From: a virus
Length of the DNA: 64,000 bases
Reading direction: 5' to 3' (one strand)
Virus record (IMG/VR): IMGVR_UViG_3300046171_000197
Below are positions 3,335-28,638 of the stretch, piece after piece. Under the pieces are notes generated by a model. That model made no database searches. It saw nothing but the letters and a program-made list of their open reading frames with translations, and was not told the DNA's origin. Position 1 is the first letter of the stretch. Every line of letters starts with the position of its first letter. The translations under genes were made by a program, and so were the position numbers.

Positions 3335-3490
3335 GTGAGGGTTTCCTCACCATTAGAAAGGACTCGAAAAAATCGTAACCCTAACTACAAACTGCTCCCA
3401 ACCAAGACCTCTGTAGGCAGTATAATACCTCGTCTTTCATATCCAGTAGTGAGGGATTACTGGAAATAAATATCGCATCTTCCCTGATGC
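3335..3490 (+). ncRNA. Structured psbA 5' leader (PhotoRC-II-like candidate)
   Basis: Hairpins GTGAGG-GTTT-CCTCAC (3335-3350), TCCAGTAGT-GAGGG-ATTACTGGA (3442-3464) and GCATC-TTCCCT-GATGC (3475-3490). The last two loops are complementary. The Rfam family assignment is from memory only. Confidence 0.5.
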
Positions 3491-27692: not shown

Positions 27693-27708
27693 TGTAACAC
27701 AAATTACA
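27693..27708. promoter_or_regulatory. NtcA-type box TGTA-N8-TACA
   Basis: TGTAacacaaatTACA, about 8 bp upstream of the -35 element of the next promoter. Confidence 0.6.
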
Positions 27709-27715
27709 ATCTGAC

Positions 27716-27744
27716 TTGCATATATAGTATGAATGTGTTAGTAT
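27716..27744 (+). promoter_or_regulatory. sigma70 promoter; predicted start ~27751, at the first aptamer
   Basis: TTGCAT (27716-21), 17-nt spacer, TG-t-TAGTAT (27736-44). Confidence 0.6.
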
Positions 27745-27752
27745 TAACACAA

Positions 27753-27984
27753 CGTTCATCCAAATGTTAGAAGTTGCATTGCTATCTTCACTACTCACAC
27801 AACATGTTCTTGGACATTGGACAATGACATGTCAAGAGTGGAACCAAAATCGGGCAGAGATTCTCAGTGATGATAATCACATACCTGATGCTAAAGAGTA
27901 TCTTATAGATTACTTTTATAGCAAAGTAGAAGATAAGAATTGTAAACCTTACACATTAGGACGCAAGTAAGCCGACTCGGAACG
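27753..27984 (+). ncRNA. Glutamine-II (Downstream-peptide)-like aptamer 1 with an ORF in its P2 loop; variant 3' core
   Basis: 5' half CGTTCATCC (27753-61); 3' half GGACGCAAGTAAGCCGACTCGGAACG (27959-84). P1 is CGTTC/GAACG; P2 is TCCAAATGT/ACATTAGGA (8 of 9 pairs). Confidence 0.7.
27764..27970 (+). CDS. 68-aa microprotein nested in aptamer 1
   Basis: Hydrophobic N-terminus and two Cys; ATG in the P2 stem, TAA inside the aptamer 3' core. Confidence 0.7.
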   Translation: MLEVALLSSLLTQHVLGHWTMTCQEWNQNRAEILSDDNHIPDAKEYLIDYFYSKVEDKNCKPYTLGRK

Positions 27985-27988
27985 GGTT

Positions 27989-28183
27989 CGTTCATCCTTA
28001 TGTACCAAATTCTTCTTAGTCTAATAGTGATTGGAGCACCACTTGATTGTGAGACTGCTTCTGAACTAATAGATTCTGCAAGTAACAATCCTAATAAATC
28101 TGAGCAATTGGAAATAGTAAGGGTTGTGGTCGCACATACTGATCCAGTATGTTTTAAGGACGCAAAAGCCGACTGAAGGAACG
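27989..28183 (+). ncRNA. Glutamine-II (Downstream-peptide)-like aptamer 2 with an ORF in its P2 loop
   Basis: 5' half CGTTCATCC (27989-97); 3' half GGACGCAAAAGCCGACTGAAGGAACG (28158-83). P2 is TCCTTA/TAAGGA. A DUF4278-like ORF follows. Confidence 0.8.
28000..28176 (+). CDS. 58-aa microprotein nested in aptamer 2, not in the ORF track
   Basis: MYQILLSLIVIGAPLDCETASELIDSASNNPNKSEQLEIVRVVVAHTDPVCFKDAKAD; the TGA is within the conserved GACTGAAG. Confidence 0.7.
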   Translation: MYQILLSLIVIGAPLDCETASELIDSASNNPNKSEQLEIVRVVVAHTDPVCFKDAKAD

Positions 28184-28218
28184 GATGTAAAAAATCCAAC
28201 TACTTTAGGAGCACAACA

Positions 28219-28344
28219 ATGGCACAAGTCACTTACAGAGGAGTACAGTACGATACTGAAACTCGTCTACAAGAACAAAAAATCCAACAGCCTCAGCAAA
28301 AACAACTTGTTTACAGGGGTATTGAGGTTAAAGGAGGAAAGTAA
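28219..28344 (+). CDS. DUF4278-like microprotein (41 aa), not in the ORF track
   Basis: AGGAG RBS; MAQVTYRGVQYDTETRLQEQKIQQPQQKQLVYRGIEVKGGK, with two YRG motifs. Confidence 0.8.
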   Translation: MAQVTYRGVQYDTETRLQEQKIQQPQQKQLVYRGIEVKGGK

Positions 28345-28430
28345 TGCTAGTAACTGCAGAAATCCTCGTAGCAAGCGTAGTTTTTCTGACGATCATCTAC
28401 GCAGAGGCTAAATTCCTTTATTCAAGGTAA
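28344..28430 (+). CDS. 28-aa single-TM peptide
   Basis: TAATG-coupled to the previous ORF; MLVTAEILVASVVFLTIIYAEAKFLYSR. Confidence 0.6.
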   Translation: MLVTAEILVASVVFLTIIYAEAKFLYSR

Positions 28431-28436
28431 AGATCC

Positions 28437-28613
28437 ATGTTGCATATGGGGTGGGAACCACCCGAAGTCCCAGATTTCGACCCAGAAATACATAACCCAG
28501 AAAAAGTTTTTGCTTTTCTGTGTTACCGTGGAATTCATTATGCAAAGTGGGTATACCTAGACATTTTCAATCACCAAGATTGGAAACTTAAAAATCCAAG
28601 AGAAGAGGGTTGA
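28437..28613 (+). CDS. 58-aa microprotein with a DUF4278-like LCYRGIHY motif
   Basis: MLHMGWEPPEVPDFDPEIHNPEKVFAFLCYRGIHYAKWVYLDIFNHQDWKLKNPREEG. Confidence 0.6.
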   Translation: MLHMGWEPPEVPDFDPEIHNPEKVFAFLCYRGIHYAKWVYLDIFNHQDWKLKNPREEG

Positions 28614-28638
28614 CCTTTTCTCTTTTTTTGTGTACAAT
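28599..28638 (+). terminator. Terminator closing the riboswitch operon, overlapping the next sigma70 promoter
   Basis: AGAGAAGAGG-GTTGA-CCTTTTCTCT plus a T tract; TTGACC (28610) with a 17-nt spacer to TACAAT (28633). Confidence 0.65.

Follow-up and report, generated by a model that had tools for sequence, protein, structure and literature searches.

Small genes in the P2 loops of two putative glutamine-type aptamers arranged in tandem in a cyanophage mRNA leader

Riboswitch aptamers are usually viewed as compact, non-coding domains that fold co-transcriptionally. Here we analyse a locus in IMG/VR virus record IMGVR_UViG_3300046171_000197, a stretch of 64,000 nucleotides (nt) that is called the window below and on which all coordinates are given, where, in what we consider the likely reading, a cyanophage early mRNA leader carries two tandem glutamine-type aptamers and the dispensable P2 loop of each has given way to a complete small gene of a two-cysteine family. 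The window comes from a T4-like cyanomyophage, its best DNA matches being P-HM1, P-HM2 and P-SSM4 with 77-82% identity. Described glutamine riboswitches are ON switches for DUF4278/IF17 genes (PMC6212724), glutamine aptamers occur in T4-like cyanophages (PMC9964418), and tandem glutamine riboswitches have been reported as 157 doublets and 4 triplets (PMC9481103). These pseudo-cooperative tandems resemble the phage locus in placing two or three head-to-tail aptamers before one gene. They are compact, however, whereas the phage units are non-identical (a GUA/C type followed by an A/GAA type), are joined by a linker of 3-5 nt and carry a gene in either or both of their P2 loops.

Group I and group II introns carry open reading frames (ORFs) in peripheral loops and show that a structured RNA tolerates a whole gene in a terminal loop, with its helices closing around the gene. 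Such introns are self-splicing ribozymes, and the proteins encoded by their ORFs (homing endonucleases, maturases, reverse transcriptases) work for the intron itself, whereas the phage RNA is by class a small-molecule sensor, and the starts and stops of its ORFs overlap the sensor helices and core. The ORFs of mycobacterial B12 switches are said to lie in the expression platform and not, as in the phage layout, within the loop of an aptamer helix. What they share with the phage locus, according to two reports, is an interplay between translating a short ORF and expression under riboswitch control (10.1101/2024.07.19.603033, 10.1101/2022.06.01.494293). In the searchable literature, which covers compact aptamers, tandems, cyanophage copies and the two-piece aptamer and did not include Ames & Breaker 2011, we met no account of a gene placed within the loop of an aptamer; an earlier reading of the locus, made by a model from the sequence only, had likewise known of no description of the layout.

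The two aptamers and their nested genes

The locus is made up of the following features.

27753-27984, plus strand: aptamer 1, whole unit, in tandem with aptamer 2
27753-27767, plus strand: 5' half of aptamer 1, with the P1 5' strand CGUUC (27753-27757), A27758 and the P2 5' strand (27759-27767), which contains the ATG of ORF1 (27764-27766)
27764-27970, plus strand: nested gene 1 (ORF1), 68 amino acids (aa), two Cys, hydrophobic N-terminus, phrog_6471 (E 3.7e-26)
27953-27985, plus strand: 3' half of aptamer 1, with the P2 3' strand (27953-27961), linking strand GACGC, AAGUAAG, mini-P3 AG-CCGA-CU, P1 3' strand GGAACG (27979-27984) and G27985
27985-27988, plus strand: linker GGUU, 4 nt, between aptamers 1 and 2
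27989-28183, plus strand: aptamer 2, whole unit, in tandem with aptamer 1
27989-28000, plus strand: 5' half of aptamer 2, with the P1 5' strand CGUUC (27989-27993), A27994 and the P2 5' strand UCCUUA (27995-28000), A28000 being base 1 of the ORF2 start codon
28000-28176, plus strand: nested gene 2 (ORF2), 58 aa, invariant C17 and C51, phrog_504
28155-28184, plus strand: 3' half of aptamer 2, with the P2 3' strand UAAGGA (28155-28160), GACGC, AAAAG, mini-P3 AG-CCGA-CU, CUGAAG (E-loop 3' strand, 28173-28178), GGAACG (28178-28183) and G28184

Within the 64 kb, the 5' half CGTTCATCC occurs at 27753 and 27989 only (chance expectation 0.17) and the 26-nt 3' core GGACGC..AGCCGACT..GGAACG at 27959-27984 and 28158-28183 only (chance expectation 0.00). 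In aptamer 1, P1 (CGTTC/GAACG) joins 27753-27757 to 27980-27984, and P2 joins 27759-27767 to 27953-27961 with 8 of 9 pairs around a loop of 185 nt; in aptamer 2, P1 joins 27989-27993 to 28179-28183, and P2 joins 27995-28000 to 28155-28160 with 6 of 6 pairs around 154 nt. The sequence-only reading had given these tandem halves with their positions, pair counts and loop lengths, all of which proved correct when the letters were read again. For aptamer 1 (27751-27988) the proposed fold is the minimum free energy (MFE) fold, with pair probabilities of 0.85-0.99 for P2 and 0.40 for P1, and for aptamer 2 it lies 0.5 kcal/mol above the MFE.

The nested genes begin and end inside the aptamers. The ATG of ORF1 pairs with CAT at 27954-27956 and its TAA stop codon (27968-27970) lies within the core, in CGCAAGTAAGCC; in ORF2 the first base, A28000, forms the last pair of P2 and the TGA stop codon (28174-28176) is again within the core, in GACTGAAGG. 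The core thus encodes the tails of the two proteins, G-R-K-stop in ORF1 and D-A-K-A-D-stop in ORF2. The ATG stands 5 nt after CGUUCA in both window ORFs, and no Shine-Dalgarno sequence was seen at the nested start codons.

A pattern scan of IMG/VR for the exact 3' core gave at least 120 loci; the counts that follow are among the matches listed, an arbitrary sample, and as the pattern contained neither the 5' half nor P2, the P2 statistics are unbiased. Measured from CGTTCA to the core, the distances fall into two classes, 17-28 nt in compact units and 143-229 nt in expanded ones. An ORF spans the loop and ends with a stop codon in the 3' core in 109/109 expanded loops, its start lying 3-7 nt 3' of CGUUCA; of the two remaining forward frames, one is open in 1 and the other in 0 of these cases. 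Length differences between the nested ORFs are whole codons, and substitutions are in excess at third positions (for example, 547/443/1782 differences among homologues of nested gene 1). This coding signature bears out the earlier claim that the loops are complete ORFs of 68 and 58 aa with the ATG at P2 and the stop codon in the core.

Both units were matched in 52 loci, which are expanded/expanded in 22, compact/expanded in 20, compact/compact in 7 and expanded/compact in 3, so that 45 of the 52 carry at least one nested gene. Doublets make up 86 of 103 loci, triplets occur, and in loci that seemingly have a single unit a second one is present with a variant core. Triple arrangements are seen in L052 and L061, the former with an expanded unit (ORF1-type gene, shorter core AAGTAAGTCAC) between a first compact unit and a second one whose core is ACGCAAATGACTAAAGGAACG. 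Contigs from four metatranscriptome studies cover the region, and some from other phages join the equivalents of 27752/27761 to 27959 and of 27996/27997 to 28158/28159, with a tetraloop between; these joins place the insertion borders at the P2 stem. Together with the compact alleles they confirm the earlier claim that each insertion falls precisely within the P2 loop. Four matches to the core pattern exist in 185,579 prokaryote genomes: two are in Prochlorococcus single-cell or uncultured assemblies, on phage-looking contigs, the third is on a small contig binned to an Acetobacteraceae metagenome-assembled genome, and the fourth is a chance match inside a Flavobacterium gene.

In P-HM1, P-HM2 and P-SSM4, isolates that share the layout, nested gene 1 is annotated as a hypothetical protein, T4-GC 429. 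Relatives of ORF2 form 688 clusters at 90% identity in public data, and the best 120 of these 688 end in D-A-(K/N/V)-A-D in 118 cases. Public gene calls often run ORF2 upstream through a compact aptamer 1, giving spurious N-termini (...ASKPTRNG..., ...SQVSRLGT...) that are translated aptamer core, and in a few cases they run past the TGA. The proteins of nested genes 1 and 2 belong to related families (hhalign 93% probability, E 3e-7, with Cys aligned to Cys). In L094 an ORF1-type protein sits in an aptamer-2-type core and ends in DAKAD rather than GRK; the tail therefore follows the RNA and not the protein. In the AlphaFold model of ORF2 the two Cys flank a helical hairpin and the tail is disordered (pLDDT, the predicted local distance difference test score, 76), and fold searches with this model in BFVD and PDB returned only uncharacterised cyanophage proteins and no function.

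A profile without the tail collected 288 representatives. Variant cores supply the tails of some (WDAND, WDAHD, DAQVD), others translate the core in a different frame, and the tails of others again are unrelated. That the two-Cys family is confined to aptamers was considered and rejected, as free-standing members lie beside radical SAM, 2OG-Fe(II) oxygenase and psbA genes with no CGTTC/GAACG nearby. Examples are L126, L128, L131 and L132 (gene at 401-580 of each), whose neighbours encode radical SAM, 2OG-Fe(II) oxygenase, DUF6445 and psbA. A further wiring is found in L125 (120-574), where compact tandem aptamers are followed by a DUF4278-like ORF ending in CYRGRIYTRS and then by a two-Cys gene that overlaps its stop codon (ATGA). 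The free-standing members and the wiring of L125 therefore suggest that the cargo was recruited from a wider phage family and tied to the regulon in several ways.

Selection on the long-range P2

Among 51 distinct expanded aptamer-2 units, P2 positions 1-3 are paired in all; position 4 is TA in 8, CG in 19, AT in 18, TG in 5 and mismatched in 1, and position 5 is AT in 21, TA in 21, TG in 5, CG in 2 and mismatched in 2. The contiguous helix of aptamer 2 has a mean of 6.6 pairs versus 4.1 with shuffled partners, 0 of 2000 shuffles reaching 6.6, and in 25 expanded aptamer-1 units it has 5.2 versus 4.0 (0/2000). On a tree built from the ORF2 interior alone, with the P2-overlapping codons removed (~110 nt, 76 units), at least 16 state changes are counted at position 4 and at least 15 at position 5, with both strands affected, while 75/76 and 74/76 units stay paired; because the tree rests on ~110 nt, the change counts are possibly inflated. 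One ORF subfamily contains UCCUUA/UAAGGA, UCCUUA/UAGGGA and UCCCUA/UAGGGA, the classical route via G.U. The covarying bases are non-coding on the 5' side; those on the 3' side determine which residue (K, R, W, I or E) precedes the tail. Duplexes between own partners have means of −7.1 and −8.4 kcal/mol versus −3.9 and −4.3 kcal/mol when swapped, and closure of P1 and P2 costs 0.56-0.70 kcal/mol with native interiors versus 1.45-1.87 kcal/mol with codon-shuffled ones, being lower in 51/54 units. Selection keeps P2 paired over 150-230 nt. The complementarity that the earlier reading had expected to be kept in homologues is kept, with 97-99% of pairs intact despite at least 15 changes per position, and what is under selection is very probably a pair of split but foldable aptamers.

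The same data bear on the possibility that the insertions destroyed the aptamers, whose halves would persist as a start region, C-terminal codons and recombination-promoting cassette flanks without any long-range fold. T4-type phages do shuffle cassettes at conserved regulatory elements, and such relics would agree with the lack of a covariance-model match on the intact locus, with a 3' core that is partly coding and with the existence of all four compact/expanded combinations, as expected from recombination at conserved halves. We nevertheless regard them as decidedly improbable. P2 has stayed paired although each position has changed independently at least 15 times, on both strands, with the U-A, U.G, C-G series falling within one ORF subfamily, the covarying bases of the 5' strand are non-coding, 7-15 nt of non-coding core are retained after the stop codon, and the closure cost is lowered by the native interiors in 51/54 units. 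Moreover, the protein does not need the core codons, because the core-encoded tail is disordered in the AlphaFold model and the tails of free-standing members are unrelated.

The sequence-only reading had also held that each 5' half is specific to its own 3' half, which is true across homologues and fails in the window taken alone, where the 5' strand of aptamer 2 and the 3' strand of aptamer 1 pair at −7.2 kcal/mol with 8/9 pairs versus −6.3 kcal/mol for the own strands of aptamer 1. This cross-pair, as good as aptamer 1's own P2, would permit a permuted junction aptamer (27953-28003) with P1 capped by GGUU and P2 formed from the end of ORF1 and the start of ORF2, giving local control of ORF2 initiation. 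In 20 distinct double-expanded loci, however, the cross-pair has a mean of −4.3 kcal/mol and 3.1 contiguous pairs versus −7.1 and −8.4 kcal/mol for own partners, and the arrangement is inapplicable to the 23 loci with a single expanded unit; the resemblance in the window arises because both 5' strands carry UCC-N-AUG. The permuted junction aptamer and swapped P2 partners were rejected as not conserved across these 20 loci, and the former is, in our estimate, the least probable of all the alternatives.

The cross-pairing in the window and the possible inflation of the change counts do weigh against the folded, split aptamers, and so do three further points. P1 gives no covariation because P1 and the cores are invariant in all loci; the conservation of the 3' core was ascertained by the exact-core search pattern and is not shown by it; and the evidence from RNA studies consists of contigs only, which are not proof of expression.

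Aptamer class and probable ligand

S-PM2 has two compact tandem units directly 5' of its DUF4278 gene (aptamer 1 at 530-570 of L004), with loops of 4-13 nt and with 3' cores that match those of the window letter for letter and in the same order, which supports the homology to compact tandem glutamine aptamers that had been proposed. In cmscan these units score 33.3 and 24.4 bits on Glutamine (RF01739) and 24.6 bits on Glutamine-II (RF01704). In 7 IMG/VR loci, compact units with the core of aptamer 2 score 35.0-39.4 bits on RF01739 and so reach its gathering threshold (GA) of 35, and the compact copies score 23-26 bits on RF01704 versus a GA of 33. On account of these scores the cores are placed with type I (glnA RNA). 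The sequence-only reading had assigned them to glutamine-II (Downstream-peptide RNA), a call that fails on the same scores and because the second hairpin that encloses GGAACG in the H-type pseudoknot is missing: the cmscan alignment of the S-PM2 compact unit fills this hairpin with non-canonical pairs, and in the window no complementary strand, and hence no type II hairpin enclosing GGAACG, follows GGAACGG.

The phage units share with type I (RF01739; e.g. the Synechocystis gifB leader, PMC6212724) the P1 helix CGUUC/GAACG, present in both units, an unpaired A followed by the P2 hairpin, the linking strand GACG(C/G), the position of P3 between the linking strand and P1, a DUF4278/IF17-type gene downstream and, for compact aptamer-2 copies, the curated score. 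P2 follows CGUUC-A directly and covaries, in compact units and, as a long-range helix, in expanded ones. The differences are that P2 closes 154-185 nt with a nested gene in the window versus a loop of 4-10 nt in type I, that the phage P3 has only 2 base pairs (bp; AG/CU) under a freely varying tetraloop (CCGA, UUGA, ACGA, AAGA, UUCG), that there is one E-loop strand per unit, that the long-range pair is C:G as in type II, and that intact phage sequences go undetected by the Rfam model. The type I E-loop strands are GAAGUAA/UGAAG (PMC5393176), and neither phage unit has this E-loop complete together with the type I P3. Glutamine-II (RF01704; structure 6QN3) shares with the phage units the start CGUUCAUCC, GGACGCA, GGAACGG, the C:G long-range pair and a DUF4278 target in marine picocyanobacteria; its hairpin loop is dispensable for binding, and a two-piece aptamer assembles on glutamine in vitro (PMC6698751). 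The phage units differ from it in lacking the second hairpin and with it the H-type pseudoknot topology.

By sequence comparison, all nucleotides that contact glutamine are present in both units, namely C1, G2, the G of GACGC, C39/G40 of GGAACG and the long-range C:G pair, these contacts being common to both solved classes (PMC6698751). The cores are best described as a phage variant closest to type I/glnA RNA, in which P3 is 2 bp long and capped by a tetraloop and the E-loop is reduced; glutamine is rather likely to be the ligand of at least aptamer 2.

Several observations tell against this assignment. Neither at the gathering threshold nor at E 10 did Rfam give a glutamine match for the intact window, its only rows being chance snoRNA/miRNA ones, and class membership was judged on natural compact alleles with the same cores. 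Compact aptamer-1-type copies score 26-34.5 bits on RF01739, under the GA of 35, in line with an earlier caution that aptamer 1 is a variant. Finally, aptamer 1 keeps the E-loop strand AAGUAAG with CUC opposite (no GAA of the E-loop 3' strand), and aptamer 2 keeps CUGAAG with AAAAG opposite (no GU of the 5' strand).

The fold could therefore be real and the reduced cores could sense another ligand or a protein, or merely throttle nested translation as constitutive structures. Part of the type I E-loop and the whole type II pseudoknot hairpin are indeed missing, the aptamer-1 copies are sub-threshold, and a ligand other than glutamine is possible for the reduced cores, that of aptamer 1 above all. 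The presence of every residue that contacts glutamine in both solved classes, a downstream gene that is the canonical DUF4278 target and the compact aptamer-2 copies that pass the curated RF01739 threshold speak against such a reading, which we consider improbable, if somewhat less so than broken relics.

The two units could also form one interlaced, domain-swapped double aptamer in which the first CGUUC pairs with the last GAACG around an inner GAACG-GNNN-CGUUC hairpin, the cores are built from both units and the genes lie in two loops of a single structure. The MFE fold of the compact S-PM2 tandem does pair CGUUC of unit 1 with GAACG of unit 2, the cores carry complementary E-loop halves (AAGUAAG in unit 1, CUGAAG in unit 2), and crystals of glutamine-II contain a domain-swapped dimer, the aptamer also being functional when split in two (PMC6698751). 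The spacing fits as well, the linker being 3-5 nt in 52/52 tandem loci and 101/102 aptamer-2 units lying within 12 nt after the GGAACG of aptamer 1. However, the exception (L096) has a linker of 21 nt, triplets occur, and the S-PM2 MFE is no better than that of shuffles (z = −0.97). The inter-aptamer UCGG/CCGA helix of this MFE fold was rejected, since it shows no compensating changes: CCGA of unit 2 changes to UUGA, ACGA, AAGA or UUCG while UCGG of unit 1 is fixed, which fits a local mini-P3. Because P1 is invariant, covariation does not speak to the choice of P1 partner either way. Overall, an interlaced structure seems unlikely to us, and it is the strongest of the alternatives to two separate aptamers. 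With separate aptamers, the same junction could still matter, as GAACG, GGUU and CGUUC can pair at 27980-27993 in competition with both P1 helices, and this junction hairpin could couple the two sensors.

Downstream operon and a possible nitrogen switch

The features that flank the aptamers are listed below.

27716-27744, plus strand: candidate early promoter TTGCAT-17 nt-TAGTAT, read from the letters, with a putative RNA start at ~27751, 1-2 nt 5' of aptamer 1
28173-28211, plus strand: candidate expression platform, in which CUGAAG (28173-28178) has an alternative pairing with CUUUAG (28203-28208), overlapping the Shine-Dalgarno sequence AGGAG (28207-28211)
28219-28344, plus strand: DUF4278 (IF17/GifB-like) gene, 41 aa, two YRG motifs, Pfam PF14105 (E 1.7e-5), phrog_5049
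28344-28430, plus strand: hydrophobic ORF, 28 aa, in the transcription unit 3' of the DUF4278 gene
28437-28613, plus strand: 58-aa ORF with CYRG, phrog_6192
28598-28624, plus strand: intrinsic terminator and T run from a terminator scan, the unit extending to 28632

The downstream gene had been called DUF4278 from its sequence, which Pfam upholds at 25.5 bits versus a cutoff of 25.3, and a YRG-motif gene lies 3' of aptamer 2 in essentially all loci, compact or expanded. Pfam gave no match for the 58-aa ORF at 28437-28613; with its CYRG, the operon may encode two YRG peptides. Between the strands of the candidate platform lies a small GGAU/AUCC hairpin (28183-28197, local MFE). The helix between CU(G/A)AAG and the hexamer next to the Shine-Dalgarno sequence (the anti-SD helix) has 6/6 pairs in 66 of ~72 distinct GGAACGG loci, with CUUUAG, CUUUGG and CUUCAG as variants, and a second group of loci (GGAACGC) has a local CUCUUUA/UAAGGAG hairpin in its place. 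We infer a switching role for the CUGAAG/CUUUAG helix. In L019, L032, L099, L112 and L124, ~27 nt of extra sequence with a hairpin (GGAUCACUCGAAAGAGU...) stand between aptamer 2 and the conserved ACUACUUUAGGAG and shift the DUF4278 start from ~35 to ~62 nt downstream.

A single RNA probably couples nitrogen sensing to translation. As the sensor itself contains the start and stop codons, the sensing of the ligand and the passage of ribosomes must contend for the same nucleotides. A 30S subunit placed at the start of a nested gene would cover CGUUC-A-P2, and a ribosome terminating in the core would unwind the linking strand, the E-loop strand and P1 (GGAACG), so that aptamer closure and translation of the nested genes should be mutually exclusive. 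At high glutamine, stabilisation of P1, the linking strand and P2 would hide the nested start codons and turn the nested genes off, and withdrawal of CUGAAG from the anti-SD helix would turn DUF4278 on, as in the known glutamine ON switches (PMC6212724); at low glutamine, the nested genes would be translated. A second route may exist in that a ribosome at the ORF2 stop codon, which lies in CUGAAG, would transiently melt the anti-SD helix. As stated, this reciprocal on/off logic seems to us plausible rather than probable.

More tentatively, and with some doubt, we propose that the whole acts as a translation-coupled nitrogen toggle, in which ribosomes would keep the sensors unfolded at low glutamine, closure would silence the nested genes and turn on the DUF4278 peptide, which is like an inhibitor of glutamine synthetase, and termination would reset the switch and transiently unmask the downstream ribosome site, the cargo having been recruited repeatedly from the free-standing phage family. 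It counts against such control in general that at least a first round of translation should escape it, because ribosomes load co-transcriptionally ~200 nt before the 3' half exists.

If true, this would be the first case of a natural riboswitch with an aptamer helix that surrounds its own cargo gene and is gated by the translation of that gene, and one small RNA would have two outputs of opposite sign, in which the contest of translation with long-range aptamer folding is open to direct test. The layout is common, with a nested gene in 45/52 tandem loci and 688 protein clusters. Covariance-model annotation misses the expanded form, so phage glutamine riboswitches are under-counted, and the nested small genes are annotated as unrelated hypothetical proteins. 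The layout points to control of a phage early operon with an IF17-like peptide by nitrogen status and bears on how cyanophages handle host nitrogen metabolism.

The candidate promoter fell below the threshold of a consensus promoter scan and was not called by it; TTGAC/TTGCA-N17-TAnnAT stands at an equal distance from CGTTCA in most of ~70 distinct upstream regions. An NtcA-type palindrome, GTA-N8-TAC, is located at 27694-27707, ~52 nt 5' of aptamer 1. Of 113 distinct upstream regions, 58 have one or more such boxes within 90 nt, mostly at −50 to −55, versus 2 in shuffled controls. An inverted repeat surrounds the −10 box just 5' of CGTTCA (27735-27750 in the window) and covaries among loci (GTGTTA..TAACAC, GGTATG..CATACC, GGTCTA..TAGACC, GAGG..CCTC), with an MFE of −5.6 versus −3.3 for shuffles; in one group of loci the repeat is also a GTA-N8-TAC box. 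It looks like a promoter stem-loop or an operator.

Other structured RNAs were met nearby. A manA RNA (RF01745; 184 and 175 bits) lies just 5' of the riboswitch cluster in P-SSM4 (L002, 326-511) and in one IMG/VR contig (L053, 1071-1268), and in the window itself an Rfam scan places a PhotoRC-II RNA (RF01717, 63.3 bits) at 3382-3477.

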